A stretch of 64,000 bases of DNA from Psammoneis japonica (GCA_008632985.1 QPGO01000196.1:1-64000); one strand, 5' to 3'. Positions 1,162 through 61,545 are shown, counted from the first letter of the stretch. Program-made: numbers and translations. The notes: a model not told the origin generated them from the letters alone.

Positions 1162-1287
1162 TGCAGTGTGCCTCGCTACTGGACAACACGGCAAGACCGT
1201 GCATAAGCCTCTTGTACGTGGCAACATAGTATTGTTAACGCGTACCTGGGAAGCACGACCACAGGAGGGCGTGGCTCTAGGTCTTAG

Positions 1288-1959
1288 CCCCACTCGGGCA
1301 AAAAATCAAACCACTCAGTGGTTTGCAACTTGAGCAGCGTAAAACTCGCAACTGACACAATAAAGTAGTACCTACACAGATACAACCTTTTAACAGAGGC
1401 AAAAAGCCATTGTTGTCAATGCATCATGTTGTCAGCGGCCACTCGTGTGTGGAGCTCGGTCGCCGTCAAATCACCGTCATGGTCGTTGTCGGTGATTTTG
1501 TCACCCCGTAGAAACAACCGTAGGGCAGTACCAGAAAAAAATATCGAACCATTGAGCGGTTCGCTACGTAGATAAGTACCGGGAGCCCCGTAGAATTGGT
1601 GAACCATGAGGTGGTTCGGGAGGATGAGCGTAGAAATATACGTGGCAATTTGTACAAGAGGGTCGAACGCAAAATTGAACCAGAAAAATGAGGCTCACGA
1701 TGAACAAGACGGTAGCAGTACGGAGAAGTTTAAGAACACAGTAAACCACTAAAATAAAGCATGCGTGTTGTCAAACAGATGTTGCTGTATTGACTGATGT
1801 AATGTTATTGTAGATATCTCATTATCTTTTACACTTTTACCCATCGTCTGTCGGTTCGTTTTTGGCTTGCCGCGAACCACTTGATGGTTCGGGGCAGGAA
1901 TCGCGCGCATTCGTGATTTCGCGCGGCGAACCACTGCATGGTTCGCGCTGGGAGTGGGG
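1288..1959. mobile_element. Non-autonomous TIR element, piggyBac-like ends, 672 bp
   Basis: Interrupts the A1 LTR at gtc|ttag|gcaattc. TSD TTAG at 1284-1287 and 1960-1963; TIR CCCCACTC...GAGTGGGG. Five copies of a palindromic AACCAn5(T/C)GGTT motif (~1309, 1547, 1601, 1874, 1928). Confidence 0.88.
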
Positions 1960-2269
1960 TTAGGCAATTCCAGAAGGATGCTAAGAGAGCATCCGTGTGA
2001 AGCACACTAGCCCGTCGTCTGGCCCACGATGGTAGCGTGATTCCACACGATGACATCACTCGTGCATGGCGCGTGATGGCTTGATTCGCACGACCCATAA
2101 TGCGAATGCACGATCGATTTGATACGATCCAAATGCGAACGAATAGGGATTTGGCAAGATTCCCTGTTCGCACGATCCCACTTTTTCTACTCTAAACTAG
2201 CTCACAATTTTCACAACGACAAAGTCGTAACACATCTTCTTTTCAGCGCCTAGCATATACATAGGGCAC

Positions 2270-2281
2270 AGTAATATTACT
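2270..2281 (+). promoter_or_regulatory. 12-nt perfect palindrome AGTAATATTACT at the PBS position of Gypsy-A
   Basis: Starts 1 nt after the LTR end (2268), with no TGG tRNA-CCA complement. Mutated versions at 12277-12288 and 33007-33018. Function is inferred. Confidence 0.6.
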
Positions 2282-2329
2282 CCCGCATGTTGTGCGAGGT
2301 AACGAAATCTACAGAAACGAAACTACGAA

Positions 2330-3406
2330 ATGTTGGTAGGACCGACAAATCTCAAAACGACCATGAAGAAGCGGATTAAGCCGCCGATTCCGTTCGCACG
2401 GCCGGAGAAGAAAGAGCTACAGCAGGGCGAGTACCAGACGTTCAAACTATGTAACAACCCTACTGATCCGGATAGTCCAACGCACGAGATGGGCATCCCG
2501 TGCCTTTCTACGGCTACATGCGAGACACTCCTAATCTTTCTACGCAACGTGGATCGCGTGCACGAAGGACAAAACATGACGACCGGGCCAGCGAAATTTG
2601 CCCTTATGCGTGACCTACTACAGGGCGATGCTCTGACGTCATTCAATGATGCCGCTGACAAGCAGGCATCCCAAACCAATGCTGCATACGCAGCATGCAT
2701 CGCGAAGCTAAAGGAAAGTATCTTCCCACATAGGGCGGCACTATTGCAGAAGCGTTGTCTGAGGCGCTTCATGTGCAAGCCCGCAGAGGTTTCTACTCGT
2801 GACTACGTCGCGAGGGCCATTGAAATTAACGGCTATATCTCTCAGTTTCCACCCGTGACGGAGGATGGAGAAGCACCGGCACCATTGCCTAATGACGAAC
2901 TATGCGATGTGTTCGAGTACGGTGTGCCAAACGCATGGCAGAAGTTCATGACGCTACAGAATTTTGACCCGTTGGCGCATACTGTCACCGAATTTGTACA
3001 GTTCTGCGAGCGCATCGAGCAGGTCGAGCTTACCGAAGGTAACCTGGACCAACATGCTGAGGTTCCACGTAATCGGGGACGTAGAACGGACAATCCTGAG
3101 TCGTTGATCACGACCCAATGGAACACCCAGAAGTCATGTATGCTACACGGGACTAACTGTGGACATCATACGGAGGATTGCCGTCAGCTCAAGCACCACG
3201 TGAAACGTGTCAAGAATGGACATTCCAATAACGGAGGCAGCAAGCCTAATACAAAACCTCGGAATGAGGAAGACATTAATACTCTCATCGGATCGAAGGT
3301 CGAGGAGTTCTTTGCCAACGCTCAGAAAAAGCACAAGGCACGCGAGGAGGAGCTTAATCACTTCCGCGACCTCAACTTAAGTGATTCCGAAGATTCGGAC
3401 ACCTGA
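2330..3406 (+). CDS. gag: Gypsy-A Gag (A1)
   Basis: 358-aa ORF directly after the 5' LTR, with a C-terminal CxxHx4GHx4C knuckle. Near-identical to 12337-13413 and 40269-41195. Confidence 0.9.
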   Translation: MLVGPTNLKTTMKKRIKPPIPFARPEKKELQQGEYQTFKLCNNPTDPDSPTHEMGIPCLSTATCETLLIFLRNVDRVHEGQNMTTGPAKFALMRDLLQGDALTSFNDAADKQASQTNAAYAACIAKLKESIFPHRAALLQKRCLRRFMCKPAEVSTRDYVARAIEINGYISQFPPVTEDGEAPAPLPNDELCDVFEYGVPNAWQKFMTLQNFDPLAHTVTEFVQFCERIEQVELTEGNLDQHAEVPRNRGRRTDNPESLITTQWNTQKSCMLHGTNCGHHTEDCRQLKHHVKRVKNGHSNNGGSKPNTKPRNEEDINTLIGSKVEEFFANAQKKHKAREEELNHFRDLNLSDSEDSDT

Positions 3407-3516
3407 GAAGGGGGCCGACATGACACAGGTAGTTTTAATGCATTAGATGAATGTACAAATGAACAACTGAATTACCATCGTACACGTGTTGTAGGCCAAT
3501 CCCGCAAACGAGTTAA

Positions 3517-4048
3517 CGTATTCGCACAACGAGCTGATGGATGGCAAGACGATTTGACATTCTGAATTTTTTTGTACTGGAAACTTCGTGTGCGCTACAC
3601 AAGCATCGCTAAAAATCGGCGACATGACGGCGGTGCGTTGTCGTAATGATGGCGACGACATCGACGTGTCCTGGAGTCTTTGAGCATTATAGACATTTAG
3701 ATTATTAAATTTACGAACATATAAAGTCATGAAATAGACCAGGAGCAGCCTTCGTTCAATCGCAAAACGTCACACCAATGCTGAGCTCTGTTTTTTGACT
3801 GTCATTTGATGCATTCAATTATCGAACGATTATGAGCTCGTCCGGGTAGCTTTCTTTACGTATTGATGTTCTTAAGAGCATTGTTGATAACGCCATTAAG
3901 TGCACATTTTAAAGTTGTTCTGTAAGACAGTCAGAAAAATGTCATCATCATCGTCGGCGTCGACGGCAATTTGTCGCGCAAATCACAAAAAAAGCACGAC
4001 AGTCGTCTGTCCGACATTGCGCTACTGTGCGCTGGTTGTGCGAATGCC
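3517..4048. mobile_element. Non-autonomous TTAA-targeting TIR element (Kolobok- or piggyBac-type), 532 bp
   Basis: Empty site cgagTTAAaaagac is seen in A2 and A3. TSD TTAA at 3513-3516 and 4049-4052; imperfect 18-bp TIR (cgtattcgcacaacgagc vs ggcattcgcacaaccagc). Confidence 0.88.
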
Positions 4049-4222
4049 TTAAAAAGACTCATCTCACTCCAATCTTGTTTATAGCTATGAATGCTAAACA
4101 TGGCAAGGGCAAGACTCAAACCATTAAGGCACTGCTAGATAGTGGCGCCAGCAGTGCCCTACTCGACAGTCGACACTGTAAGCATCTGCGAAGCCATTCA
4201 ACGGCTGAGACAAACTGGACTA

Positions 4223-4764
4223 GGAAGTTGGTGACAAAAGTTCGAACTTTTTGGGTTCGATTTTTTTTAGGCCAAAAAATTCCCAACTCTAGATTCCAGA
4301 GCGTTTGCCCTCAATCCTCATGCACTGGTGCAATTGTTTATAGCAACTCCGGCGGTCATTCATCGAATAATGGTTGAGAAATCATTGGTTGAAAAGGGCG
4401 ATTTTTGGGGGGGTTACAAAAGTCCGAACTTTTTTCTACGTATTTTCTGTACTGCTTCTACGTGAGAGTTTTGGTTCACTCGATCGCGCGACTTCTGGCG
4501 ATTTCGACTATCACGAAATAGAACTGTTTGATGCCAGATACGACCGAGAAGACATGTCTCAGGGTCAAAAAATACGTCAAACAAACACTGACACACAGTG
4601 TGACACATAAAGCCTTAATGTAATGAACATCTGGTAGTCATAGCTACCATAATGGCAAGAACAACGGACAATCAGGGTGCCTCCACGTAGCCACCGTATT
4701 GTTTCTACGTGGAAATAAAAAGTTCGAACTTTTGTAAAAGTTCGGACTTTTGTAACCAACTTCC
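4223..4764. mobile_element. Non-autonomous TA-targeting TIR element (MITE), 542 bp
   Basis: Empty site ggacTAcggt is seen in A2 and A3. TSD TA at 4221-4222 and 4765-4766; ~29-bp TIR ggaagttggt(g/t)acaaaagt(t/c)cgaactttt. Internal repeats of the palindrome AAAAGTTCGAACTTTT. Confidence 0.9.
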
Positions 4765-5577
4765 TACGGTAGCAGGCTCGTTCAGTACGTCTAACGACTG
4801 TACCGTTAAATTTCGGTTACCAGAATTATCCGAAACTGCAGAACTTAAACATGCCGTCCACGTACACAACGGAAAGTTGGGCAAGTACGACATGATTATT
4901 GGACGTGACATTCTGGAGACACAAGGCATTGACATTGTCTTCTCTAAGCAGATGATAGAGTGGCCATTAGTCAATGGAGAAGCACCAATGAGGCACGTAG
5001 ATGCTACGGTAAAAACCTCCTTCTATCTTCAAGATCCAGAAGCCTTATCTTCGGAAACCGACCGGATTTCATGTATTTTAGACGCTAAGTACGCGCCGGC
5101 CTGCCTCGAGGACATAACACGAGAGGCAATAGGACTTTCTACAGTTCAACAAAACGACCTTTTGGCACTATTAAATGCCACGAGTCCTTATTTGATGGGA
5201 CATTAGGAGAATGGAAGGGAGAACCCTACCATGTCCAACTCAAGGAGGGTGTAGAACCATACCACGCTCGTCCGTATAAAGTACCTCGTGCGTACGAAGC
5301 TACGCTACGTAAAGAAGTAGAACGCCTAGTACGTATCGGTGTTCTCAAACACGTTAACCGATCCCAATGGGCAGCTCCATCATTTGTCACACCGAAGAAA
5401 GACTTAACGGTACGCTTTATTAATGATTTGGGAGAGCTGAATAAACGGATCAAGCGATTGCCTTATCCGATTCCTCATATCCAAGATATGCTACTTAAGC
5501 TCGAAGGCTTTATGTGGGCTACATCGCTGGATTTAAACATGGGCCACCATCATATCCGATTGGATGCTGACAGCAAG

Positions 5578-8500
5578 TGCACTATGCTCGAAGAACGAGT
5601 GTAAACGAAAGTAGAACGAAGTTCAAAAAGTGAAAATTATGAGATTAAATTTTGCTCTGTGATTTTTGGTTTCTCCGAACGAGTTCTCAATGGCCTAAAG
5701 CTTCTGTACTGCTTCTACAGACAAAAGGCCTTTCGGAGAATATATTCGTGACAACAGATTGTCCGGATACGATTGCTATTGACACGTAAGATGTCAACAT
5801 CGTCAATCGATCGTATTTGCAATTCTCAACATCCGATCAACTCTGTGTGATCGTTCTGTCCTTTGTACGCATCCACGACTGTGGTGCGATTGACATATAA
5901 ATAATAAATAATCATAAATATGTGCATGACAGTCGCATGCTGCATTCGCCTCCCTAATTGCACATTAGAGTCATTTGTTAAGTGGATTATTTGACGGACA
6001 TTGACAGTGTCAACAATGTCTCCACGTTCACTGTATTGTGCCATTGGCAATGACTGTTGTTGTTATAGGCCATCATACACAGGGCCATTTCATTTTCCAA
6101 ATGTCTTTCGAGAGCATCATGGTTTGTCTCATGTTCATTTGGACACACGGACCAATTGTCCTGCTGTTCTTTCATGGTGTCGATTGTACATAGCATCTTG
6201 CCCAGCACTCGATGTACGCACTTAATTGGCGTTCACTTACTTACTTGTGGATTTCGTGTAGTTTGGCCGGCTTACTTTATATGCCATGTTGCTCTGCTGC
6301 ACTACCACGTTTCATAAGTAATAATTAACGATGGTCAAGGATATGACCATTTCGTCTTGATGATCAATCCTGTGATGGTTGTGAATTCCATTATGGATTT
6401 TTTGTACTTCAATCATCTATCAGTTGGGTTTTAATCGTTATTTGGACGTTTCTTTTGACATACCGGTGTTATTTTGTCATTCCGAAGGCACTGCTTTCGT
6501 GCACTAAGTGGATAAATGTCCATTTTTCTTTTCTTTTTCTAGATCTTTGGCACATCTCGTGTGTCGACATGATGCACATTTTAATGTCTTGCCTCGTACA
6601 TTGTACAATACAACCGCACGGGTGTTGTGAGATTGTCTTTTGCCAGTGTAAAGTGGACACATATAATGTGCACCAATCTGTCACTGTTTTTTCCTAAATC
6701 GTCCTTTAAAAAGGCGATTTTATCCTTTATGATATGAGCATTTTTCGATCTCGCTCGCCTCCACGAAAAGTGTTCGTATGATATGTCGCGTCCGACAATT
6801 TGGAGGGAAATGTCTTTATCCCGTTTTAACGGTAGGACATTGTCGTAGGATTCAATTTTCTATAGTAAGTCGGCTGATCGCGTCTATCGCGACGATGTTC
6901 GCCTTGCCCTCGCTGTATTTTAATTCGGGACTGAAGTTTTCTATTGTAAGTCGTCAACGTATGACTTTGTCCGTTGTGTCTTATGATCCGTATATATATA
7001 AATCTGTTGGCCAAACAGTATATTTCGGAATTTTTTTAATAAGTGTTTTCACTATGGACAGAAGTTCTTTTTTCCGTTGTAACGTATAATGTTGAAATAC
7101 GTGTATGACAACAATATAGTTTTTGATTTGATACGCTCCATATTTTCGGAGACTTTTCGTTCCGTACTTGTGCTTTTGCCGTTTGACCTTTATTGAGGTG
7201 AATCTGGCTAGTATTGTACAGGAGATCGTTGAGACTACATGTCTCGACAGTAGCAACGTATAACGACGAGATGTCGTAGTGTTCTTTACGTTTTTCTCAT
7301 GTTGCGATGGCTTGAATCGCCTCCATTTTCTTTGTAATCGAATGCATGTCGTTACGTATGGAAGTCTTGATAGTTTATTTCAAGTTGAATAGTGAAGGAC
7401 TTTTGTTGTTAACCTTCTAAGCGACTGTTCTAGTCGTTTGAATGCCGCACTAAGCTGTCACTTGTACAGGTGATATTTTGAAGTCACCTTTTGTCAGGTA
7501 TAAACGATCATATACAGTCGTTCTGACTTCTGACAACTTCAAACCTGTTATGAGTTCACTCATGTGTTGTTTAAAAATGTCTGGGGCTCTATAGATTCTC
7601 ATTGGAAGTCTACAGCACTCATTTTCTCCCTACGGCATGATTTTTGTGTGAGCACGACGTGTGCTTTTTTTATTTGACATGGTGGCATTTCATATTTGAA
7701 TCAAATAGATTACATATATGAAACGTTCTTGCTTCAATGGTATTTCCTGAATATTGGGTAAAGAATGCACCACGTGTATGAACCTTTTACTAAGCTTCTG
7801 AGTGTCGGATACGGTCAAACTCGACCTGTTTTCTTTAGACAATGAGTCTCAGAGCGACTGACTCAGAGTAATTTCATTTTTAAGGCTTCAATCTTTCATA
7901 ATAGGTCAAATTCCTTTTGATTGGACGCCTCCAAAGACTATGACAGGAGAAGGTTCTCACGCGTCGTGGAATCGCGTCAGATTTTCCACGATGAGATCCA
8001 CTGGTTCTTCCCATGCATTCGTCTGAGGAACTTTTCAAAAAGATTTCAACCTCTTAAGAAGAAGATTGAGTTGGTTGTGTTCATTTGGGTTAGATGCATC
8101 GCCGTAGTTGTCACTTGATTAGGATCGATGGCGTGATAATGTGAGTCGAGGACCATTGGTTCCGTTATTAACTCTATTCACGGCGTCACATTTTTCAATG
8201 TGATCGGTTTTCAGCTTGAAAACATCGGCATCGAAGAGTGTATGAACATTCTTCATAGGGTAATTGCTTCTTCCCATTTGATTTCTTCAATTACCTAGTC
8301 TAATGTGATTACAAGACTGGACATTAAGTCGCGTCCCATGATCATGTTACTCGACCTTGAAGAAGATTTCGTGTTATCGACATATACTGTTTGAATGTCA
8401 GTGCGTCTTAAATTTGCATGGTGAGAACTGAATTCGGTTTCTACTGTCAGTCGTAAAGAGCTCACCCTTGGTTTCCCAAGTTTTTTGGTGGCGGATATTT

Positions 8501-10262
8501 TGGTTCTCAACTTTCGCACGAATTTGCGCAAAATTATGGTTGACGATGTTCCATTGTCGATAGGAACACGTAGATGCTTTTTTCTCTCCTTTCCCAAGGA
8601 AGTATTCATATAAATGATGACTCCTGGACTAGCATGAATTATTTCTGCCTTTTTTCTAGGCTTCCTAATATCCAGTAAAGCAAATAATTCGTGAATAGAC
8701 CCAAGTTGTTCTTCGGATTCACTCTGGATCATCCGATCAAATTGGCACTTTTCTTCACTGAGGGTATCAGAATCTGTTTCTTTGCCCTTATGCTCTTTTT
8801 CTTTGTTCGAGGAACTCGCTTTGAGTATTTTTTGAACCGCCTGATCAACCATGACGTTCAACTCTTTTTTGCGAGCGGCATTTTCGTTATCGCGACGCGA
8901 CCGCGTGCGATTGCCATTTGAACGGCGCATTTTTGGGTCTCTTTCAGAGTCACCCTTGCACTCTTTTGCTAGTTCATTTTCAGAATAGCTCCAATCCGTG
9001 ATGCAGGTATTCTTTTTTCAAAGATTAGACCTGGCATTCACCTTGGATTGTTCAGGTACCGTATGGGAGACCATTTTTGGAACCAAATTTGGAACCATTT
9101 TGGTTTTGGAATCAACAGCGCTATCAGAGCCTGATTTGATATGTTTTTTTGTCATAGACGTCCTCGCCGACCTCTAGACGACTCAAACCTCAATCAGCTC
9201 GTCAAGGGTATGATCCAATAATCCAAAATTTTGGACAGTAGGCTGATGCTGCCATCCTTGCGGTGCGAGTGATAGCTGACAGCTCACGGCTCGGTTTCCC
9301 GCTAGATTCAACTTAGAATCGATTGAAGGGTCGTATAGACGCTCTTCATTGACCTCTTGGGTCGAATAGGCACTCTCTTGCTGCTGAGAGCCTTGGTTTC
9401 TTCAGATCATCTCGAAAATAATAATTCCGATTCTGAAGTGCAATTCCTGGAAAGACATGAGATAAGAGACTCTTGAGGTACTTTCCAACGGTTCCTTCTT
9501 GCTCTTTGGACTGGAGGCTCGTTGATTCGGTCTCAAAAAACTCTCCAATAGTCTCTCCTTGCATGATAGACGTATTTCTCGGATCTGATCGACTCGGAAC
9601 TTGCATTCTCTGCAACCATGACTTGGTGTAGATTTTTTTGATAATGCGGTGTACTTGTAGAGTCCTTGATCCTTGGATGCTTGGAATGGACCGTGTTAGA
9701 ACGAATCTTGTCATTTGCTAGACGAAAAACAGTGTTCCATCTTGAGGCACTGCTCGGATTGAGCTTCTTCCACTCGGAAATCGATTCTAGCAGAACTGAT
9801 GCGATTCGTCCCTGTTTATAGAAGAATTTACAAAGGCACATTAGTTAAAATTTTCATTTTCCGTGCTTTTTACCTTCTGTGGTGTGTATACACAATGCAC
9901 TATGCTCCAAGAACGAGTGTAAACGAAAGTAGAACAAAGTTCAAAAAGTGAAAATTATGAGATTAAATTTTGCTCTGTGATTTTTGGTTTCTCCGAACGA
10001 GTTCTCAATGGCCTAAAGCTTCTGTACTGCTTCTACAGACAAAAGGCCTTTCGGAGAATATATTCGTGACAACAGATTGTCCGGATACGATTGCTATTGA
10101 CACGTAAGATGTCAACATCGTCAATCGATCGTATTTGCAATTCTCGACATCCGATCAACTCTGTGTGATCGTTCTGTCCTTTGTACGCATCCACGACTGT
10201 GGTACGATTGACATATAAATAATAAATAATCATAAATATGTATATAACAGTCGCATACTGCA
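5578..10262 (-). mobile_element. Gypsy-C non-autonomous copy (C1) with decayed internal region
   Basis: Two 367-bp LTRs (5578-5944, 9896-10262, TGCA...TGCA) with about 8 differences. TSD CAAG at 5574-5577 and 10263-10266. PPT gggaggcgaa on the minus strand at 5945-5954. The interior is a heavily frameshifted gag-pol (e.g. 8295-8930 spans the gag end and protease). Confidence 0.93.
9883..9894 (-). promoter_or_regulatory. 12-nt perfect palindrome TGTGTATACACA at the PBS position of Gypsy-C
   Basis: Lies 1 nt inside the 5' LTR boundary (9896). Mutated versions at 19953-19964 and 24821-24832. Function is inferred. Confidence 0.6.
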
Positions 10263-10266
10263 CAAG

Positions 10267-11843
10267 AAGCTCTGCACGCTCATCTTCCCGTGGGGCAAGT
10301 ATGAGATGCAGGCATTGCCCATGGGGTTATGTAATTCGCCAGACATTTTCCAAGAATGCATGTCAGGCTTATTTGAAGATCTATCGTTCGTTCGAACACA
10401 CTTAGATGACCTTCTCGTCGTGACGAAAGGCACCTATGAAGATCACCTCAACAAACTTGAAGAAGTCTTGTTGAGGGTCCAGAAAGCAGGACTAAAAGTT
10501 AACGCAACTAAATCTCACTTCTGTCAAACCCAATTAGAACACTTGGGTTATCTGGTCAACAGAGACGGAATACGACCAATACCTAATAAAGTCGACACCA
10601 TTAAGCGAATCGCGACCCCAACCAATAAACGCGACCTACGCTCATTTGTTGGTATGGTGAACTACTACAGTGACACGTGGATTAGACGTTCTGAAGTCTT
10701 GGCTCCGCCAACACGACTCGTAAGCGAGACTGTTAAGTGGGAGTGGACGTCCGTTGAAGACGAGGCATTCGAAACCGTTAAACGGGTGACATCGGATGAT
10801 GTTTTATTGTCACATCCTGATTTTAATAAACCCTTTGAGATACATGCCGATGCCTCTAAATATCAATTGGGAGCAGCTATATCCCAAGATAATAAACCTA
10901 TCGCCTTTTACAGCAGAAAGCTCAATAGTGCGCAATTAAATTATACAACAACGGAGAGAGAATTACTCGCCATTGTGGAGACATTGAAAGAATTTCGAAC
11001 GATTCTCCTTGGTCATCGTATAATTACACATGCTGATCATAAAAATCTTACGTACAAAGCATTCAATGCCGAGCGCGTTATGCGCTGGCGGTTAACATGC
11101 AAAGAATACGGTCCCGAACTACGCTGTGTTAAGGGCACCCATAACCTAGTCGCTGACGCTCTTAGTCGCCTTCGGCTAGCACCCAGCTTGCCTTCCGAGG
11201 CCAATCCGGATGTAAAAGACACTCCATTGAGTCGTCCTTTGCATGAAGCTTTTAATGCAGACGCGCAAGACGACGTATCTCTGCCCATTAGCTTCAAGCG
11301 CATTCAAAAAGAACAACAAAAGGACAAGCGTCTACTCTCACGAGCTAAGGACTCGTCCGACTACTCCATTCGCGCGTATTGTGGGGGAGGGTCATCACGA
11401 CAGTTAATCTGTCATAAGGACAAAATCGCAGTACCACAGTCATTGCAGATCCCGCTAACTGAATGGTGCCACGAGACACTGTGTCATCCAGGTGAGACAC
11501 GTACAGAAATATCTATTGCCCAGCACTTCTACTGGCCTAGCATGAGGTCTACGGTGCATTCTACGTGCGTTAAGTGCGATCGATGTCAGAAGACAAAACA
11601 CCGAACACAGCGTTATGGGAAGCTGCCAGAAAAGGTCGCAGAGATAATTCCATGGGAGACTCTATGCATGGATGTGATAGGGCCATATAAAATTCAAAGA
11701 CGCGGAAAGGACACTTTGCAATTATGGGCAGTCACAATGATTGACCCAGCAACCGGGTGGTTCGAGATTGAAGAAGTGTCTACGAAACGCGCAGACGTCG
11801 TAGCAAACGTCGTGGAACAAACGTGGCTATGCAGACATCCGTG
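10267..11843 (+). pseudogene. pol: Gypsy-A A1 pol, part 2 (RT, RNase H, integrase N-terminus)
   Basis: HLDDLLV (YxDD with Y->H), DASKYQLGA, ERELLAIVE, HETLCHPG...CVKCDRC. Cut at 11843 by copy A2. Confidence 0.92.
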
Positions 11844-12336
11844 TGCAGTGTGCCTCGCTACTGGACAACACGGTGAGACCGTGCATAAGCCTCTTGTACG
11901 TGGCAACGTAGTGTTGTTAACACGTACCTGGGAAGCACGACCACAGGAGGGCGTGGCTCTAGGTCTTAGGCAATTCCAGAAGGATGCTAAGAGAGCATCC
12001 GTGTGAAGCACACTAGCCCGTCGTCTGGCCCACGATGGTAGCGTGATTCCACACGATGACATCACTCGTGCATGGCGCGTGATGGCTTGATTCGCACGAT
12101 CCATAATGCGAACGCACGATCGATTTAATGCGATCCAAATGCGAACGAATAGGGATTTGGCAAGATTCCCCATTTGCACGATCCCATTTTCTCTACTCTA
12201 AACTAGCTCATAATTTTCACAACGACAAAGTCGTAACACATCTTCTTTTTCAGCGCCTAGCACATGCATAGGGCACAGTAACATTACTCCCGCATATTGT
12301 GCGAGGTAACGAAATCTACAGAAACGAAACTACGAA

Positions 12337-13413
12337 ATGTTGGTAGGACCGACGAATCTCAAAACGACCATGAAGAAGCGGATTAAGCTGCCGATTCCGT
12401 TCGCACGGCCAGAGAAGAAAGAGCTGCAGCAGGGTGAGCACCAGACGTTCAAGCTACGTAACAACCCTGCTGATCCGGATAGTCCAACGCACGAGATGGG
12501 CATCCCGCACCTTTCTACGGCTACATGCGAGACACTCCTAATCTTTCTACGCAACGTGGATCGCGTGCACGAAGGACAAAACATCACGACCGGGCCAGCG
12601 AAATTTGCCCTTATGCGTGACTTACTACAGGGCCATGCTCTGACGTCATTTAACAATGCCGCTGACAAGCAGGCGTCCCAAACCAACGCTACGTACGCAG
12701 CATGCGTCGCAAAGCTAAAAGAAAGTATCTTCCCAAACAGGGCGGTACTACTGCAGAAGCGTTATCTGCGGCGCTTCATGCGCAAGCCCGCAGAGGTTTC
12801 TACTCGTGACTACGTCGCGAGGGCTGTTGAAATTAACGGCTATATCTCTCAGTTTCCACCCGTGACGGAGGATGGAGAAACACCGGCACCATTACCTAAT
12901 GACGAACTATGCGATATGTTCGAGTACGGTGTGCCGAACGCATGGCAGAAGTTCATGACGCTACAGAATTTTGACCCGTTGGCGCATACTGTCGCCGAAT
13001 TTGTACAGTTCTGCGAGCGCATCGAGCAGGTCGAGCTTACCGAAGGTAACCAGGACCAACACACCAAGGTTCCACGTAAGCGGGGACGTAGAATGGACAA
13101 TCCTGAGTCGTTGATCACGACCCAGCGGAACACCCAGAAGTCATGTATGCTACACGGGACTAACTGTGGACATGATACGGAAGATTGCCGTCAGCTCAAG
13201 CACCACGTGAAACGTGTCAAGACTGGACATTCCAATGACGGAGGCGGCAAGCCTAATACAAAACCTCGGAATGAGGAAGACACTAATACTCTCATCGGAT
13301 CGAAGGTCGAGGAGCACTTTGCCAACGCTCAGAAAAAGCGCAAGGCCCGCAAGGAGGAGCTTAATCACTTCCGCGACCTCAACTTAAGTGATTCCGAAGA
13401 TTCGGACGCCTGA
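12337..13413 (+). CDS. gag: Gypsy-A Gag (A2)
   Basis: 358-aa ORF ending in TGA, in frame with pol. Confidence 0.9.
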   Translation: MLVGPTNLKTTMKKRIKLPIPFARPEKKELQQGEHQTFKLRNNPADPDSPTHEMGIPHLSTATCETLLIFLRNVDRVHEGQNITTGPAKFALMRDLLQGHALTSFNNAADKQASQTNATYAACVAKLKESIFPNRAVLLQKRYLRRFMRKPAEVSTRDYVARAVEINGYISQFPPVTEDGETPAPLPNDELCDMFEYGVPNAWQKFMTLQNFDPLAHTVAEFVQFCERIEQVELTEGNQDQHTKVPRKRGRRMDNPESLITTQRNTQKSCMLHGTNCGHDTEDCRQLKHHVKRVKTGHSNDGGGKPNTKPRNEEDTNTLIGSKVEEHFANAQKKRKARKEELNHFRDLNLSDSEDSDA

Positions 13414-16400: not shown

Positions 16401-16596
16401 TTCTGACAGCTATGCAGGACCCGCCAGAGTTGTCCGTGTATATGACAACGGCACGTTGCGTATCCAGAACGGAGCGCTGATAGATGCGTATAATCTACGG
16501 CAGATTGTACCCTATCACCAGCAAGACATTCTGTCACTTAACGGCCCTGATCATGGGGGAGTGTGCAGTATGCCTCGCTACTGGACAACACGGTGA
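13414..16596 (+). pseudogene. pol: Gypsy-A A2 pol (PR-RT-RH-IN)
   Basis: Same frame as gag. Nonsense stops at 14077-14079 and 14485-14487; in-frame 147-bp (49-aa) deletion at ~14790 relative to A1 and A3. Motifs LLDSGAS, YLDD, YDRGTEF, NAIVERVHQ. Confidence 0.93.
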
Positions 16597-19560: not shown

Positions 19561-19561
19561 T

Positions 19562-52300: not shown

Positions 52301-52651
52301 ACAAGGACTTGTGGTGCACCAACGTCATGTGTGAATGACATGACGGTGTTTGGGTGGTCCTGTTTCCTCTTCCAAGGATAGAACCTGTCATGCCCTCTTC
52401 CTTTGGCAAACACACTTCCTCCTATCTCGCCATGCATTGATTTAACCTTCAAAAACATCTGGTCAGAGTAGAAGCGTCCCTTGACAGCAGGGAACTTAAG
52501 CCGCGGGGCTTTCTTCCAGACTTTCCGTTCGGATGGTGTGTAGACATTACAGACCCCTGCCTGGGTCGTCACTCTAAGGGTGTTCTTAGCGGCCGTCAGG
52601 CCAATGTTCCACCTTTTAGAGAGCATCTCGGGTGTGACAGTCGATGCATGA
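49314..52651 (-). pseudogene. Copia-B pol (IN-RT-RH), fragmented
   Basis: LVSDGA, PWQNLAE, RALYGLKSSGA, KADPDVWM, FVDADHAG, SSTFGSEF, CDNEAV, NLADVLTK. A 36-bp tandem duplication at ~49799-49870. Confidence 0.92.
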
Positions 52652-55600
52652 TGACAGGATTTGAACAGGATTTGGATGCGCGCGAAGCATCGCGCGCTGT
52701 TTAGTTTACCGTGCACAGTTTTGTGTGCTTTAGTTCCGCGCGTTCACGCGCGATGTAGTTTGCTTTCGAGCCACAAGGCTCACAAGAATAATAACAGTAG
52801 CCCGATTATACCGACTTACACGTCTTTCGGCTCCTGTAACGGTCTCTGAGCGGAGACTCATCTGCTATTTAGACAGCAGTAAGGAGTTATTGTTTGAATT
52901 CTTGCCATTTGCCTTCATTTTCTTCAGATTAACAGTCTTGCTCATTGTCAACCCATTGAGCAACCGCCATCGTCGTCGTTGATTTACCAACGACGCTATT
53001 TCAATTCTACGTGGACCTCCGTATATATTCTACATACATCGGCAAGTCTACGCGCATTCAATACCAGGGCATCGGCAGGAAGTTAACGTCACCGTCAAGT
53101 CTCCTTACCGCTGGATATCTGGATTGATTATACTACCTTTGATCGCTGAAGACATACATTCAACGGTCATATCCAAGTCTATCCTTGATCCTCATCCCTT
53201 GATATACCTATTCATCGGTTAACGGTCAAGAACCCTACATATTCAAGGATCTTCGTCGCTGAAGACATATATATATATACATATCTTCACGGCCAAGAAC
53301 CTGTACCCACTCTTCGGACTACGGTTTTGCTACCACTCTACAAGCACACCGAGTCCATTGTACCTGATCTACCCCGGACTACTGGTGCTCTACAGTTCTA
53401 CTAGGTCCACGAGGACGACTGTGAGAGCAAGTAGCCGTGATTACAGCCTACGTTGGGGCGAGGGTGCTTTCCCGCGTTTGTTCGTTCGTCCACAGCGCCT
53501 AACGCCTACGTCAACTGGCCAGCCTGATCGGGAAATCCAACCAAATATAAAATAAGAACGGTTCGGGGGTCTTGTCCACCTCTAGTCAGCTTACCTGCAG
53601 GGGTTTACAACCCGCTACTCCGCTCGTGAGCAACCCAAAGCGCCACTAGCTGCGGGTTCGGACGTGCCGGCACAACTCTACGGACCGGATAGGAAGTTTA
53701 GCACTTAACAACGAACGGGATAACAAAGCCCGGCGACTTCTGATTTTAAGATAGTTCAAGATTTCAAGTCAAGTCTATTTCAAGTCAAGTCTATTCTCAC
53801 CCAAGTTTCGAGTCTACCTTCTCTTCCCAACCAGAATTGATTGTCCTGACACCACTTTTGTCTACCATGGTTCTCACTCGTCAGCAACAAACCGATGGTT
53901 TCGAGCACGTTGTTGGAACCGTGCTTGCCCAAGGTGCTGGGAGTCCTCTTCGTTTGGCTTTGGCCCAAGACGGCACGGACTCGTATCAGGAACTATTCAC
54001 GTTCATACCGTCCCAAATCGACTCGCTTGAGTACGACAACGGCACTAATATAATCCCTTTGCCCCGTGGTTATAAGAACATGTTAGCAGCACTAGTCAGT
54101 CTGTACATTGTCAAAGCACACAAAGGTCTTGACGTTGCCAACGACTCCTCTTTGTTCACGCATGACGAGTTCCTTGCCTACCGCCTCAGCCCCGACTACA
54201 TGTCTTCTGTGTCCATCGGCAGCTCACCCCTTGCACCTCCACATGTCACCAACCCGACCAAGGCACGCGACCCGGTGCGGGACTTCAAGCGAGGCATCAA
54301 GCGTGATCCCACCGCTTTCACGGCTCTCAAATCCGACAAGCAGTGGCACACTTGGCACACCTCACTTGTGGCACAAGCCCGTGCCCAAGACGTCGAGTGC
54401 ATTCTAGACTCGTCGTACAAACCGACCAGCCCCGAAGACAAACTGCTCTTTGCTGAACAGCAAAAGTACATGTTCGCCGTCTTCGAACGCATCCTTCTCA
54501 CCGACAAGGGCAAGGCTCTCATTCGCGAAAATGTGGGGTCTTCTGACGCACAGACCGTCTACCGCTCCTTGTCTGAGTACGCGCTTGCCTCCACCCGCGC
54601 ATCTATCGAGTCCTCCACCCTGCTCACGTACCTGACCACCGCGCGTCTTGGTGATGGCACTTGGAAAGGTCCGACCCACGGGTTCATCCTTCATTGGCAA
54701 GACCAGTTGCGCAAGTACGAGGCACTCATCCCGGCCAGTGACCACTTCTCTGAAGGACAGAAGCGCGTCATGCTCGAGAATGCCGTGCACCCTGTCGAGG
54801 AACTCCGTGCTGTCAAGAACCAAGCTGATCAGCATCGTACGCAGAGTGGCAAGAGCCTCACATACGATCAATACTGTGGCTTGCTCCTCTCCGCGGCAGC
54901 TCAGTACGACAGCACGTTTCAACCCAAGACGACACCTCGAGCTCCCCGACGCGCCATATACGCACATGACGTCTACTCCGAGGAACCGTCCGACGATGTG
55001 TTCTACGACATTGACAGCGACGTTGACGTCCTTCAGGCCAATGCTGCCTGCACCCGCGGTCCCAGCCTCACCGGTGTCCAATGGAGACGTCTCCCTCCCG
55101 ACCACCAACGGCTCTGGGATTCGTTGCCCGATTCCTCCAAGGCGATCATCCTTGAGCATTCTCGTCCACCTCCCCGCAACCCGCGAGCCAGCAACTACCA
55201 TGAGTCTGTTACGGCCAACCTTCACGACCAACGCCTTGGGAGTGACGGTGATGTCAACTTGTCCAACACGACTCCTGCTGACTATGGTGACTCCGCTGCA
55301 CATGTGGACGCCATTTCGGATAATCCTATCCTGGCGCACCTCACCAAGCGCAAGCCACTGCCACCCGGTGATCTGCAACGTCTGTTGTCTCCTAACCAAG
55401 CCCCCAATGCCAGTCGACCGGGGCCATCCGCCGCTTCCTCTACCCCGCCAGCTTCTGCAGATGACATAGAACTTAACGGCCGCACTTACCGCCGCGTTAA
55501 CAACCACAATGTCATTTACTCTGCCTCTGCTCATCGCTCCACACGCACTGGCGCTCTAGTCGATCGTGGGGCCAACGGCGGCATTGCTGGCGACGACGTC

Positions 55601-58600
55601 CGCGTCATCGCACGCACCTCTCGCCAAGTCGACGTTCAGGGCATTGACGATCATCAATTGGTGGACATCCCCATTGTCACCGCTGGTGCCGTCATTGAGA
55701 CCCAGCGTGGTCCCGTCATCGCCATCCTCCATCAGTACGCATACACGGGAAAGGGCAAGACCATCCATTCCTGCGGCCAGCTCGAATGGTACAAACAGGA
55801 TGTCAACGATCGCTCTGTCAAGGTGCCCAACGGCTTGCAACGTATTGCCACTCCTGATGGCTATGTCATCCCCATTGACATCAAGGCTGGCCTGCCTTAT
55901 GTTGCCATGCGACCTTACACTGACGCCGAATGGGACACCCTGCCCCACGTCATCCTCACCGGTGATGACACATGGGACCCTTCCGTCCTCGATCACTCTG
56001 TCACTGACGATGACCAGTGGTACGACGCGATCTCTGACCTACAGGACGATCCCACTGCCAACCTATTTGACGAATACGGCAACTACCGTCACCGTGTCGT
56101 TGTCAACGAGACCATCTTGTCCGCTTCCTTGTCTGCCGATCACGCGTCCGCCCTCGATGATCACCTCATTCCGAACGACGACGTGTTCTACGAGTGTCAT
56201 CTGCATGCGATTGACCCCAAGGGCGATGACGTTCCACCTCCGGAGCGCACTGTACAGCCCAAGGACCCCCCCTTCGAGTCTCTTCGGCCTTACTTTGGCT
56301 TCCTACCTACCGATACGGTCCGTCGTACTTTTGACTGCACCACGCAGTACGCCCGCATGCCCGCCGGTACACACCTTCGCAAGGCCTTCAAATCACCCAA
56401 CCCCGCCCTTAATGTGCACCGCCGCAACGAGCCTATCGCCACTGACACCGTTTATGCCGACACCCCGGCCGTCGACTCTGGTTGCACCAGCGCCCAACTG
56501 TTTGTTGGCACCGAGTCTACCGTCACTGACGTCTACGGCACTAAGACGGACAAAGAGTTTGTCAACACACTCGAGGATCAGATCCGTGAACGTGGTGCCC
56601 CATCCAAACTCATTAGCGACCGTGCTCAAGTTGAGATCAGCAACAAAGTGCTCGGGATCCTACGCGCCCTCTTCATCTCCAGCTGGCAAAGTGAGCCTCA
56701 CCAGCAACACCAAAACTTTGCCGAGCGTCGATACCAGACCGTGAAGCGCATGGCGAACACTGTCATGGACCGTTTCGGTTCGCCCGCCCACACATGGCTG
56801 CTGGCGCTCATGTACGTGTGCTTCATACTCAACCATACAGCGTCCCCACGTCTCCACTGGCGCACGCCCCTCGAGACTCTCACTGGATCCACCCCGGACA
56901 TCAGCCCATTGCTTCGCTTTCACTGGTGGGAACCAGTGTACTTCCACCTCGATGACTCCGATTGGCCGTCCGAATCTCGTGAGTTGCGTGGACGCTTCGT
57001 TGGCATTGCTGAGCACGTCGGCCACCAGATGACCTTCAAGATTCTATCTGACGAGACTCAGAAGATCCTCTACCGGTCCAACGTTCGCTCCGCCACCCCG
57101 ATCCTGCCGTTCGAAACCTGCGTCTTGATCCTCCTGATGGGGAGCCACCTGACCCATCATCAAATCTCGCCATGACGACAACCCCGTCGATTCTCCTGAT
57201 GGGGAGATCAGGACACCCAAGATGCCAGTTTTCGATCCGCAAGACATCATTGGACGTACCTTCCTCATGCAGCCACAAGAGGACGGACAACGCCACAGAG
57301 CTCGTATCGTCAAGGCCGTCGAAGACCACGAATGGAAAGTGAACGGCAATCCCGAGCTCACTAAGTTCGTCTGCTCTGTCAACAATGACGAATACGAGGA
57401 AGTCCTTGCCTACAATGACATCATGAATCACATTGAGCAAGAAGACGAAGACACCACTATTTGGAAATTTCGACGCATCGTGTCACACGAAGGCCTCTGA
57501 AGCCTCACGACCCAACCTGGAAAGGCTCAAGCTACAACATCATGCTTGAATGGGAAAGTGGGGAGATCACGTCCGAGCCTCTTGCCATCATCGCCAAGGA
57601 CGACCCCGTCACCTGTGCCATCTATGCACGAGAGAACGGACTCCTCGACACGGATGGATGGAAGCGGTTCCGCACCATCGCGAGGCGCCAAAAGAAGCTA
57701 TTTCGCATGGCCAACCAAGCCAAGCTTCGCTCCTTCCGCACTGCACCTCGCTACAAGTACGGATACGAAGTTCCCCGGAACTACAAACACGCCATGTCAC
57801 TAGACGAACGCAACGGCAACCGCAAGTGGGGAGACGCAACTAATCTCGAGATGGACCAACTCGACGAATACGAAGTCTTCCATGACTGCGGGCCCTTCAA
57901 GTCTTCCACTCCTCCTGCGGGACACAAGAAGATCCGAGTGCACCTGGTGTACGACGTGAAACACGACGGTCGCCACAAGGCACGACTCGTAGCCGACGGG
58001 CACCTCACGGACGTACCTTCGATAGTGTCTACTCCGGAGTAGTCTCCCTCGTGGCCTTCGGCTGATGATTTTCCTGGCCGAACTCAACGAGCTGGAGACA
58101 TGGGCCACCGACATTGGCAATGCCTACCTTGAAGCCACCACCAAGGAGAAGCTTTACATTGTAGCTGGACCCGAATTTGGCAAACTCGAAGGACACATCC
58201 TTGTCATCCACAAGGCACTGTATGGACTCCGCAGCTCCGGTCTCCGCTGGCACGAGCGCTTCGCCGACTGCCTGCGAGCTGAAGGCTTCTTCCCCTGCCG
58301 CGCCGAACCCGACATTTGGATGCGCAGGAACGGCGACCACTATGAACACATTGCCGTTTATGTGGATGACCTCGCCATTGCCATGAAGGACCCTCAATCT
58401 TTCGTCGACACTCTCACGGAAAAGTACAAGTTCAAGCTCAAGGGTACGGGACCCATTGAGTTCCATCTGGGTTGCGACTTTTCCCGGGACCCCGACGGCA
58501 CCTTGTGCCTGTCTCCGCGCAAGTACATCGAGCGCATGGTCGACAGCTACACCCGACTGTTTGGGGAGAAACCTACCACCAACGCCCTGTCACCTCTAGA

Positions 58601-59753
58601 GAAGGGTGACCACCCCGAACTGGACACTTCCGAACTGCTGGGACCCGATGGCATTCACAAGTTCCAGTCTCTTGTTGGTTCACTCCAATGGGCAGTGTCC
58701 CTTGGTCGAATTGACATTACCACGGCCGTCATGTCACTCTCTAGCTTCCGAGCTGCGCCCCGTCAAGGCCACTTGGATCGTGCCAAACGCGTCTGTGGGT
58801 ACCTCTCCAAGATGCGACACGGTGCTCTCCGCGTTCGCACGGAAGAGCCCGACTATTCGGATCTCCCTGCTCCGGCCTACGAATGGATGCATTCCGTGTA
58901 TGGTGAAGCAGAAGAGATGATCCCGAAGGACGCTCCACCGCCCCTTGGCAAGTTCGTCACTACCACCCACTACGTCGATGCAAACTTGTACCATTGCATG
59001 CTCACCGGACGCTCTGTCATGGGAATGCTCCACTTCCTCAACAAATTCCCGGCTGATTGGTTCTCCAAGAAACAAGCCACCGTGGAGACTGCAACCTACG
59101 GATCTGAATTTGTTGCCGCAAGGAATTGTGTTGAGCAGATTATCGACCTGCGCATCACCCTGCGCTACCTTGGCGTCCCGATCCGTAATGTCAGTTACAT
59201 GTTCGGTGACAACAAGTCGGTTGTAGACAGTGCCACCATCCCGCACTCCAAGTTACACAAGCGACACACCGCACTTCGTTCCACCGTGTGCGTGAGGCAA
59301 TTGCCTCTGGTTACCTTGAGTTCCACTTCATCGAAGGCTCCCGCAACCCTGCTGACATTCTCAGCAAGCATTGGGGTTACTCCCAAATCTGGGACCTTCT
59401 CCGACCCCTCATGTTCTGGAACTTCATTCCATCCGAAGTCGAATCTGTTTCTGTGGCTCCTCAAGCAAACTGGGGAGTGACAGGATTTGAACAGGATTTG
59501 GATGCGCGCGAAGCATCGCGCGCTGTTTAGTTTACCGTGCACAGTTTTGTGTGCTTTAGTTCCGCGCGTTCACGCGCGATGTAGTTTGCTTTCGAGCCAC
59601 AAGGCTCACAAGAATAATAACAGTAGCCCGATTACACCGACTTACACGTCTTTCGGCTCCTGTAACGGTCTCTGAGCGGAGACTCATCTGCTATTTAGAC
59701 AGCAGTAAGGAGTCATTGTTTGAATTCTTGCCATTTGCCTTCATTTTCTATCA
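52652..59753 (+). mobile_element. Copia-A copy 2, full length, nested in Copia-B
   Basis: Near-identical LTRs at 52652-52926 and 59478-59753. Flanks catga/gatga (4 of 5 TSD bases match). The host frame rejoins as LSTSS-H-ASTVTPE. Confidence 0.95.
53867..59530 (+). pseudogene. Copia-A2 Gag-Pol polyprotein with several 1-2-bp frameshifts
   Basis: Open from ATG 53867 to ~57095 (LVDRGANG protease, integrase), then fragments 57222-57500, 57461-58042, 58065-59480 and 59288-59530. Confidence 0.93.
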
Positions 59754-59758
59754 GATGA

Positions 59759-61545
59759 CTCGAGGTCGACAGTGCATGCACCCGTTTCCGCTCGGCACAA
59801 TCCGGGTGGACATCTGGGTCATGCCGGTCGTGTAGCCCGTCTCCCTCAATGTCGTTGTGGGAGACATTCACCTGAGCAACCAGGCGGTGATACAGAGAAT
59901 CGTCATCATTAGTGTCCATAATGACATTCTCGTCGTGATAGGACGTTTGATATGAATGAATTGAAGCGATGCACCTGGTCGCATTCATCATCGTAGCCTG
60001 TCCGTCAGACTGTACTGATCCTTGGCGTGCACTAGCACATGCATGCGCTTCCTCCTTTTGCGCCATGGCATCAGTAGAAGGCTCCCATTTCAGGGGTGAT
60101 GTGAGTTCCAGCTGGGGAAGGTTCTCCAGATCCTCCTTTGCTGGCTTGTGTGAGTCAAAGACTGAAGCAACACCTTGCATGCATGATGGCATCCTGATCT
60201 TCAAGTCAGGGAAAGCAATGGATAGAGTGTGTGCCATTGGGATCAAACTGGCAAGGGGTGTCGTGGACAGTCAGTCCATTCGCTCGCAGTTGGTTGGGAC
60301 ACAGTAGAGTGTTGGTCATCCTGTCCCCGAAAAACATAGCCTCATGGACTAACAGTGGGTGTGGTTGTCCATTAGTTGGATCAACCCACACGGCAGCAGC
60401 CGTGCAAATAGGAACATTTTTCATTGGTGCATGCTCTTCAGAGTAAGGGTGTACCACCACAGTTCTGTCGACATCAGAGTGAATTACAAAATTGGATCCA
60501 ACAGCCCACGTGTCAGCGTGCGAGTCCAAATCATTGGTTGCTTCACCATCTGAATGTCCAGCAGATGATAAAGAGATGTGTGTGTCCTTTGAGAATCGCC
60601 TGGATAAATGTATGGTGCCAGCAGGTTTAGCAACAGTCGGTTCTATACCTTTTAGTGCTGGCGCAACTATTCATTCCTCTTTCTGAGGTTTCTTGTGGGC
60701 GCTACATCCGAACTGGGTGCCTGCATTGGCGGCAGGTTTATCCGACTCTTTGGAGTCCTTTTGTTCATCAGCAGGTTTAGGTTCAGGCTCGGCAATAGCC
60801 ACCTTCTTAACAGTGCACGTTTTGGCATCGACCGACTCAGCCTCCGAGGACGCAGCTGCAGCTTTGTGTTTCTTCTCGGCTTTCTTGGCATCGCGGAGCT
60901 TCTTAACTTGCTCTTGCTCAGGACCGTCAAGAGCGTTCCACTCTTCAATGGGATAATGGCCTGCCCTGATCCTGGGCTTGTCCTTTTTAGGTTGGTGCTT
61001 GCCGCCAGGGTTTCCGCACCGGTTGTTGCGGCATTGGACGGACGCGATTCCACGAGTGTCAGCATTGCAGTTCTTAGCATTCTCTACCAGAGTCTTCATA
61101 TGCTGCTGGCATGCTTCGAAATCCGCTAGCTTCGTCGGGTCTCCATCCACTACACTCTTACCAGTTTCCAACCTAGGGTCGGAGATACCCTTGAGAAAGT
61201 CAGAGACCTTCTTGGTCTCGGCTACCGGTTCATCAAGCTCAGACAAGTCGTTGTGAGCCTTCTGATGGTGTTGAATGCACTGGTCGAAAGTAAATCTACC
61301 CCGTCCGGTGTACTTTGCGGTGGCAATCTGTGCATGAGCATGGTTCTTTTGGGTGGTGGCGGCAGCCGATCCTTCAGCCTGCCTCTTGAGAGCAAAGAAA
61401 GCAGTACGACCATCACAATTGCGATTGGAAGGTTTGACAAAAGCCCATCCGGGCCCCCCATCACCAACTTCTTCAAGAGATCATACAGGCATTGCCTGTC
61501 CTGCGCATGCTGAGCTCCTGCAAGTCGAGCAGTGGCAACAAGGTC
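59759..61545 (-). pseudogene. Copia-B gag and protease region, 5'-truncated
   Basis: DSHADT protease motif, TLLCPNQLRANG, gag VAETKKVSDFLKGISDPRLETGK. No 5' LTR follows; the right boundary is approximate. Confidence 0.85.

Follow-up and report, generated by a model that had tools for sequence, protein, structure and literature searches.

Transposons of a 64-kb window decay from TpA to TpG and CpA, probably by a process of the kind described for Bigelowiella natans

The closest described counterpart of the mutation pattern analyzed here comes from Bigelowiella natans. In mutation-accumulation lines of this species 231 of 302 nuclear point mutations lay in an integrated nucleocytoplasmic large DNA virus (NCLDV) and a virophage, and 230 of these 231 were A>G or T>C changes, all of them at TpA, at a rate of about 6e-7 per site per generation; elsewhere in the genome the rate was about 1000-fold lower, and only some lines showed the effect (Mettrop et al., bioRxiv 10.64898/2026.01.13.699255). 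TpA-depleted coding sequences of B. natans are enriched for reverse-transcriptase (RT) and DDE domains, and an ADAT2-like DNA adenine deaminase has been proposed; the main text of the preprint covers neither long terminal repeat (LTR) retrotransposons nor CpG decay (Mettrop et al., bioRxiv 10.64898/2026.01.13.699255). Here, a 64-kb stretch of DNA (QPGO01000196.1, positions 1-64000; "the window" is this whole stretch) was analyzed, which consists of nested Gypsy and Copia LTR retrotransposons, small terminal inverted repeat (TIR) elements and old relics, as revealed by self-BLAST, a listing of open reading frames (ORFs) and Pfam. These integrated elements have changed from TpA to TpG and CpA after their insertion.

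A preceding interpretation of the same DNA, the sequence-only reading, had described this change as the reverse of fungal repeat-induced point mutation (RIP). This was borne out by the outgroup comparisons below, and every specific example of that reading that could be checked was recovered. The kind of process has meanwhile been reported, as the B. natans preprint shows it experimentally (Mettrop et al., bioRxiv 10.64898/2026.01.13.699255). A full-text literature search for TpA>TpG/CpA hypermutation found no other report, and a search for transposons and methylation in Bigelowiella yielded no record on this genus.

The spectrum was counted in an alignment of the three near-full copies of the Gypsy-A family (A1, A2, and A3; mutual identity 95.0-96.3%), with the column majority as ancestral state. 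A3 as aligned joins 32574-33308 to 40361-44926, and its first 735 bases probably belong to another copy. The alignment contains 341 substitutions, 312 transitions and 29 transversions. The largest class is TA>TG/CA, with 121 events at 684 sites (0.059 per site per copy), and the dominance of this class that had been read from the differences between copies thus also holds after normalization. A>G is much rarer after A (23/729, 0.0105), after C (22/670, 0.0109) and after G (10/680, 0.0049); the rate at TpA is 5-12 times the per-site rate in the other contexts (Fisher test of TA versus non-TA, odds ratio 7.0, p = 2e-35), and TpA accounts for 121 of all 176 A>G/T>C events. Since TpA is palindromic, an A>G change after T on one strand is a T>C change before A on the other, and both count as one event. 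The most mutated copy is A1, with 56 TA-type and 31 CpG-decay singletons, compared to 35 and 16 in A2 and 30 and 20 in A3. One codon occurs in three states, TAC (5260), TGC (14188), and CAC (41972), exactly as had been described, and 33198-33199 and 33238-33239 are two more TA positions with three states. A psoralen-like TpA signature was also considered and is ruled out by the rarity of transversions (29/341).

The decay of CpG, which had been noted to co-occur, is the companion of this process. CG>TG/CA changes amount to 67 events at 697 sites (0.032 per site per copy), and the TpA rate in Gypsy-A is about 1.8-fold higher. By 5' base, the CpG rates are 0.043 for ACG, 0.035 for GCG, and 0.024 for both CCG and TCG; a TCG-specific CpG mutation of the Pucciniomycotina type can be dismissed, since TCG is not preferred. 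The two Copia-A copies, which are 95.7% identical across 6.2 kb (self-BLAST), also differ in both respects: the losses in Copia-A1 amount to 39 TA and 52 CG sites, those in Copia-A2 to 14 and 20.

Both losses have left their mark on composition. In the whole window the observed/expected (o/e) ratios are 0.60 for TA, 1.25 for TG, 1.25 for CA, and 0.92 for CG. Along the sequence (2-kb windows), TA o/e drops at 28-32 kb, to 0.17-0.19, and at 46-48 kb, to 0.23, and in these TA-poor regions CG o/e is 0.40-0.50 and TG/CA 1.3-1.7, while TA o/e is 0.8-0.98 in the youngest Gypsy-A DNA. The stretch 28400-32500, which had been called nearly TA-free, has 47 TA versus 275 expected, 96 CG versus 236, and 831 TG+CA versus 513; the relic frame within it (Table 1) has 37 TA versus 236 expected. 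Over 63 one-kb windows TA and CG depletion are correlated (r = 0.74), and TG+CA correlates negatively with TA (r = -0.76) and with CG (r = -0.80). In 20 related Gypsy loci from metagenomes (identity up to 69%) TA o/e is 0.59-1.0, and therefore the depletion belongs to the host and not to the element lineage.

Pairwise differences carry no direction, and therefore proteins of distant relatives were used as outgroups, 40 for Gypsy pol (53-60% identity) and 30 for Copia. At 29 nonsynonymous TA-type sites of Gypsy pol with a conserved outgroup, the outgroup has the residue of the TA state in 24 cases, that of the TG/CA state in two and neither in three. For Copia the corresponding numbers are 14 for the TA state, none for the TG/CA state, two for neither, and seven unclear cases, and at its CpG-type sites the outgroup has the CG state in 10 cases, the other state in none, with 10 unclear. 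Tyrosine in Copia-A2 faces cysteine or histidine in Copia-A1 at 19 codons and the opposite is found at one; at least 15 such changes had been claimed, and the four peptide pairs quoted for them were all recovered in place. In the relic frame 15 columns in which tyrosine is kept in 17 relatives contain eight Cys, four His, and one each of Tyr, Leu, and Phe. Other conserved residues are fully retained (Trp 6/6, His 6/6, Cys 15/15, Gln 6/6), and among the arginines, changes of the CpG type to His (4), Cys (1), and Gln (1) were found.

The loss of conserved tyrosines includes that of the RT motif YxDD. As had been described for three Gypsy copies, it reads THLDD in A1 (10399), THIDD in C2, a member of the second Gypsy family (22506, minus strand), and THVDD in the older inverted relative of C2 (27443). 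The tyrosine is retained as TYLDD in A2 and A3 (A3 at 42422) and as SYVDD in C1 (6961), the other member of the second family. The pol stop codon at position 16522 was confirmed as TAA in A3 and CAA in A1 and A2. Of 672 TG/CA sites, 623 are constant in all three Gypsy-A copies, and thus a model of saturating C>T changes, i.e., RIP with the wrong polarity, cannot fit. As judged from these comparisons, the direction of substitution is away from TA, to TG/CA.

Both LTRs of one element are identical when it is inserted, and differences between them date from the time thereafter. Six LTR pairs contain 53 differences: 25 TA-type, 11 adjacent-TA double hits, 14 CG-type, one other transition, and two transversions. 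The A3 pair may not be a true pair, as 32574-33308 probably stems from another copy; without it, 44 differences remain, with 21 TA-type, seven adjacent-TA, 13 CG-type, one transition, and two transversions. The pair of A1 has 16 differences (six TA-type, four adjacent hits, six CG-type), that of A2 eight (six TA-type, two CG-type), that of Copia-A2 two (both TA-type), and that of C1 eight (five TA-type, two CG-type, one transversion), in agreement with the five of about eight that had been counted for C1 previously. Polarization of seven Gypsy-A LTRs, including the reverse LTR at 1..424, gave 14 TA>TG/CA versus four reverse changes and 14 CG>TG/CA versus three reverse changes. A DNA transposon footprint has been affected as well as the retroelements. 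The empty site of the small TIR element in A1 is TATA in both A2 and A3, while the target-site duplicates (TSD) in A1 read TGCA and TACA, as had been pointed out, and thus both duplicates were altered after the insertion. Taken together, the LTR pairs and the TSD show that the process acts on chromosomal DNA following insertion, in accordance with the sequence-only reading.

The changes occur on both strands and singly. In Gypsy-A, 86 A>G changes face 90 T>C changes, the numbers of TA>TG and TA>CA are 23/24, 13/13, and 15/10 in the three copies, and the order of strand labels along the copies is random (runs-test z = 0.45, 0.80, and -0.43). Comparison with random draws from the TA sites revealed no clustering of TA changes, including within 20 bp. 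Single changes without strand coordination argue against processive editing of long single-stranded stretches. Since neither TG nor CA is a target, each TA can be changed a single time. The sequence context reaches beyond the dinucleotide: for a mutated A in xT[A]y, an A at position -2 gives a rate of 0.099, compared to 0.034-0.054 for the other bases, and at position +1 the rate is 0.096 with T, 0.061 with C, 0.035 with G, and 0.029 with A. The hottest contexts are ATAC (0.172), CTAT (0.121), and ATAT (0.119), which results in an extended preference for ATAY. TA>TG/CA turns no sense codon into a stop codon, and this explains why Copia-A1 still has a frame of 1914 codons and the relic three in-frame ORFs. 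In the sense strand of older elements, TG tends to exceed CA.

Additional members of the family were seen in a public sequencing run, X1, which contains 0.41 of the words sampled from 26000-33500 and may represent the assembly's own data; no other run, and no RNA run, was listed with these words. The 5000 X1 contigs that were aligned to Gypsy-A2 (12277-16996) drop rare variants. The summed word depth on A2 is in the range of thousands to tens of thousands, which points to a repeated family, although summed depth is not equal to copy number. X1 differs from A2 at 187 variable places, with A>G at 72, T>C at 67, C>T at 19, G>A at 20, and others at 9. Among the 40 places listed of these 187, 10 are CpG losses of A2 itself, and 19 are TA in A2 and TG/CA in 80-99% of the depth. 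At these 19 sites TA is present in all three window copies in 15 cases and in two of three in four cases; for the eight nonsynonymous ones the outgroup favors the TA residue in six, is ambiguous in one, and favors the other state in one. The TG/CA majority implies that most family members already carry the derived state. Either mutated source elements continued to be amplified or changes recurred at extreme hot spots. Because no stop codons are created, mutated source elements would stay open and could amplify, and this would explain the 19 sites.

The explanation that we hold to be probable, if not strongly so, is a DNA-level mutator of TpA in integrated mobile DNA that is of the same kind as in B. 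natans and probably an adenine deaminase. A host process would act on mobile DNA after its insertion, at the level of DNA, and would turn the A:T pairs of TpA into G:C pairs, as TA>TG or TA>CA, singly and on either strand, with a per-site rate that equals or exceeds that of methyl-CpG decay. The process would be enzymatic and adenine would be the base attacked, the most likely chemistry being that a TadA/ADAT-like deaminase turns adenine in DNA into hypoxanthine. The U33-A34 of tRNAs, on which TadA/ADAT naturally act, already has a 5'-U. Codons for tyrosine would be converted to Cys or His, Ile-ATA to Thr, Val-GTA to Ala, and Leu-CTA to Pro, including the tyrosine of the RT motif YxDD, while stop codons would never arise, and hence old relics would retain long open frames. 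The process may be aimed at silenced or foreign DNA and may serve as a defence.

Several observations weigh against this explanation. Pfam, Rfam, and tRNA scans recognized no host gene, tRNA, or Rfam RNA within the 64 kb, and without such a gene or single-copy DNA for comparison, targeting looks the same as a genome-wide bias. Deamination of adenine and modification of thymine give identical data; of the A>G mutator that had been proposed, the transitions at TpA are real, but a modified thymine is as compatible with them as a deaminated adenine. The preference for TpA is strong but not exclusive, as 55 A>G events lie outside TpA. There are 49 apparent TG/CA>TA events, some of which are re-polarized by the outgroup, and A3 carries two genuine CAA>TAA changes. 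The order T>C>G>A at position +1 fits the TAC context of TadA only in part. Much of the signal may have been inherited from source elements that were already mutated, as the X1 contigs suggest, and not have been acquired in place. Finally, the sense strand of Copia-A1 has 30 TA>TG versus nine TA>CA changes (p = 0.001; 33968-40164 compared with 53315-59543), which is not explained by the context rates derived from Gypsy, because these predict a ratio of 1.26:1; nor would it be expected from a DNA process that treats both strands alike. This bias may reflect a component that is linked to transcription or that acted before insertion.

An alternative that we regard as unlikely, and that nevertheless survives best, is a modification of thymine: a TET/JBP-type oxygenase would generate 5-hydroxymethyluracil (5hmU) or a derivative thereof from T at TpA in silenced repeats, which would mispair with G during replication and result in T>C. 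Because TpA is palindromic, all of the counts fit T>C equally well. In dinoflagellates, it is mainly the T of TpA and TpC that 5hmU replaces, as older nearest-neighbor work has revealed. In Amphidinium carterae, the 5hmU that a TET/JBP homologue makes is concentrated in repeats and partly overlaps with 5-methylcytosine (5mC), and its inhibition activates transposons, but the 5hmU peaks described for this species have the TG-rich motif GTTGTTGTTG and not TA (bioRxiv 10.1101/2023.11.30.569493). A 5hmU-driven T>C spectrum was not documented in the literature examined.

It is quite unlikely that the pattern is a context bias of the whole genome, whether or not accompanied by GC-biased gene conversion, that is not aimed at transposons but merely visible in them as neutral DNA. 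The window offers no non-transposon control and its overall TA o/e of 0.60 would be in agreement with such a bias. However, young elements still have TA o/e ratios of 0.8-0.98 while those of the relics are 0.17-0.23, the TpA rate is above that of methyl-CpG decay, and the 20 metagenome relatives have TA o/e ratios of 0.59-1.0. GC-biased conversion would favor all changes from A:T to G:C, and CG over TG, yet CG decays. For B. natans, the preprint text reports a rate gap of about 1000-fold between the viral inserts and the remaining genome (Mettrop et al., bioRxiv 10.64898/2026.01.13.699255).

The coupling of TA and CG loss, across the window (r = 0.74) as well as between copies, could also be accounted for by error-prone repair, in which T:G mismatches derived from 5mC in methylated transposons recruit a non-canonical mismatch repair with misinsertion opposite T by a Pol-eta-like polymerase at WA, a motif that is linked to A>G. 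This candidate of the sequence-only reading was weakened and is improbable in our view. WA predicts changes at both TA and AA, but the rate after A (0.0105) is not above that after C (0.0109), with 0.059 at TA, and the TA changes are not clustered within 20 bp. In addition, the B. natans regions mutate almost solely at A:T, without C>T (Mettrop et al., bioRxiv 10.64898/2026.01.13.699255).

RNA-level editing of adenosine to inosine by an ADAR-like enzyme with a 5'-U preference, fixed via reverse transcription and re-insertion, is very unlikely. It would fit the 30:9 bias of the Copia-A1 sense strand and the TG/CA states that are common to most family copies in X1, as copied templates would give. 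However, LTR pairs and a TSD were altered after insertion, Gypsy-A is strand-symmetric and not strand-coordinated, and the changes extend to TIR elements and a non-LTR relic. ADAR is said to favor a G at position +1, which is disfavored here (0.035). A mis-polarized RIP-like C>T change at CpA, or an assembly or base-calling artifact, which pairwise differences alone would allow as they carry no direction, can be dismissed almost entirely, since it is contradicted by the outgroups (24:2, 14:0, and 12/15), by the constancy of 623 of 672 TG/CA sites, by relics that are TA-poor and not TA-rich, and by the same A>G/T>C excess in X1 contigs built by another pipeline, which exclude an assembler artifact, though not one of the chemistry.

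If the DNA-level mutator of TpA is accepted, it is possible, and put forward here only tentatively, that it represents a second, independent TpA-specific DNA-editing defence, which would act on LTR retrotransposons and TIR elements in a clock-like manner and would be coupled to silent, CpG-methylated chromatin. In case the host is not Bigelowiella, the system would be spread across eukaryote lineages. The enzyme, a DNA adenine deaminase or a thymine-modifying oxygenase, would then define a new class of natural A:T>G:C editors. Retrotransposons and small DNA transposons are substrates of the process, any candidate enzyme must reproduce the ATAY preference, and the TpA process runs in step with CpG decay. 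There are also practical consequences. The loss of Tyr, Ile, Val, and Leu codons without the formation of stops will lead gene finders to predict long false genes in relics, and age estimates based on LTR divergence will be inflated.

The positions of all elements are summarized in Table 1. In addition to its three near-full copies, Gypsy-A is represented by further LTRs, and the second Gypsy family comprises C1, C2, and the older inverted relative. Protein collections contain nothing close to these elements: Gypsy reaches 60% identity at best, Copia 72%, and the relic 40%.

Table 1. Mobile elements and relics of the window (positions are those of the whole 64-kb stretch).
Feature	Position	Strand	Remarks
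Gypsy-A LTR copy, reverse orientation	1..424	-	94-95% identity to other LTRs
Gypsy-A1, LTR retrotransposon split by nested insertions	1162..18454	+	Self-BLAST; own pieces 1162-1287, 1960-3516, 4049-4222, 4764-5577, 10263-11843, 16996-17551, 17947-18454
C1, second Gypsy family, nested in A1	5578..10262	-	LTRs 5578-5944 and 9896-10262, 97.8% identical
Gypsy-A2, full-length, nested in A1	11844..16996	+	LTRs 11844-12276 and 16564-16996
Small TIR element in A1	17557-17946	.	Target-site duplicates TGCA 17553-17556 and TACA 17947-17950
C2, Gypsy element	20115..25211	-	LTRs 20115-20484 and 24831-25211; TA o/e 0.44-0.64
Older inverted relative of C2	25209..27927	+	79.5% identity to C2; RVT_1 match; TA o/e 0.37-0.45
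TA-poor relic, 1188-codon frame with 2 stops (TGA, TAA)	28313..31876	+	Protein family without Pfam match
Gypsy-A LTR and start of internal part	32574..33308	+	Probably separate copy from A3
Copia-A1, more mutated copy	33303..40164	+	1914-codon open frame 34407-40151; N gap 33642-33967 in 5' LTR
Gypsy-A3, internal part and 3' LTR	40164..44926	+	BLAST
Second TA-poor, CG-poor stretch	45365..48000	.	29 TA versus 100 expected; TA o/e 0.23; CG o/e 0.50
Degenerate Copia-like relic	49317..52743	-	RVT_2 7.5e-10; weak rve and Pol_BBD; protein identity to Copia-A 26-27%
Copia-A2, less mutated copy	52651..59756	+	LTRs 52652-52929 and 59478-59756

Four small TIR insertions lie inside Gypsy-A1, at 1288-1959, 3517-4048, 4223-4763, and 17557-17946, and their target duplications are TTAG, TTAA, CTA, and TATA. 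One TIR pair among them differs by GTA versus GCA, which is another TA>CA change. The pol ORF of Gypsy-A2 (14488-16596) contains RT, RNase H, and integrase domains, as detected by Pfam. A segment of 197 bases of Gypsy-A is duplicated on both sides of Copia-A1 (33112-33308 and 40164-40360, 94% identity), near the N gap. The variant pattern of 32574-33308 matches A1 and that of 40164-40360 matches A2, and the repeat is likely to represent two different Gypsy copies or an assembly join. The Copia lineage encodes a polyprotein of about 1900 residues (34407-40151 and 53750-59480, both on the plus strand), of which Pfam recognizes RVT_2 alone; it has 1189 relatives, which lie on metagenome contigs with lengths of 6-7 kb and mostly comprise 1850-1930 residues. 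At 62592-63200, 63372-63779, 48229-48488, and 28545-29011 there are diverged tandem duplications (units of about 130-185 bp, 71-89% identity).

The frame of the TA-poor relic is a full-length member of a family of proteins of about 1100-1200 residues with 1146 relatives (best E = 6e-84). No Pfam match was obtained for the relic or for seven relatives that were scanned, and its look-alikes in the atlas are unnamed eukaryote clusters (Arthropoda, Mollusca) and a lead to DUF7869 at 0.89. It is probably a protein of an undescribed mobile element. The second TA-poor stretch contains a 561-codon open frame on the minus strand (45365-47047), for which no Pfam match, atlas match, or homologue was found; it probably arose by chance where TA is scarce. 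As TA is lost, TAA and TAG disappear with it and long chance ORFs arise, which is a trap for gene callers.

Compared to known systems, the window shares with fungal RIP that context-specific transitions disable repeated mobile DNA and that a dinucleotide signature remains. However, RIP converts CpA to TpA by C>T, raises TpA and the AT content, and creates stop codons, while the window shows the reverse and stop codons are never created. RIP is also heavy and strand-coordinated in each round; here, the direction is reversed, the relics are TA-poor with long frames, and dense strand-coordinated tracts are lacking. The deaminase-type transitions in retroelements are reminiscent of ADAR and APOBEC3, and a preference of ADAR for a 5' U is mentioned in the Discussion of the B. 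natans preprint (bioRxiv 10.64898/2026.01.13.699255). The targets of these enzymes are RNA, or cDNA prior to integration, and clustered, strand-specific runs are left behind, in contrast to the post-integration changes without strand coordination in the LTR pairs, the TSD, and the TIR elements of the window, where Copia-A1 alone is biased. Deamination of 5mC at CpG co-occurs in the window and has the same products, TG and CA, yet it cannot touch TpA, and the raised A>G rate at both TA and AA that is expected for Pol-eta is not found, because AA resembles CA. Dinoflagellate 5hmU is likewise a non-cytosine modification on transposons that partly overlaps with 5mC; it differs in its TG-rich motif and in that no mutational consequence is reported in the preprint (bioRxiv 10.1101/2023.11.30.569493).

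The greatest similarity is to B. natans. Common to both are TA>TG and TA>CA changes on both strands (with a 30:9 bias in Copia-A1), the TpA context, the direction away from TA, and, as a long-term signature, the depletion of TpA with a gain of CpA and TpG in integrated DNA. In B. natans the changes were observed de novo, they are nearly exclusive to TpA and episodic, and they affect single-copy viral inserts, whereas in the window they were deduced from the divergence of copies, they affect LTR and TIR elements, and they are accompanied by strong CpG decay and some other transitions; the extended ATAY preference was seen in the window. Thus, the window is a further instance of a barely known kind of hypermutation, and it extends this kind to LTR retrotransposons.

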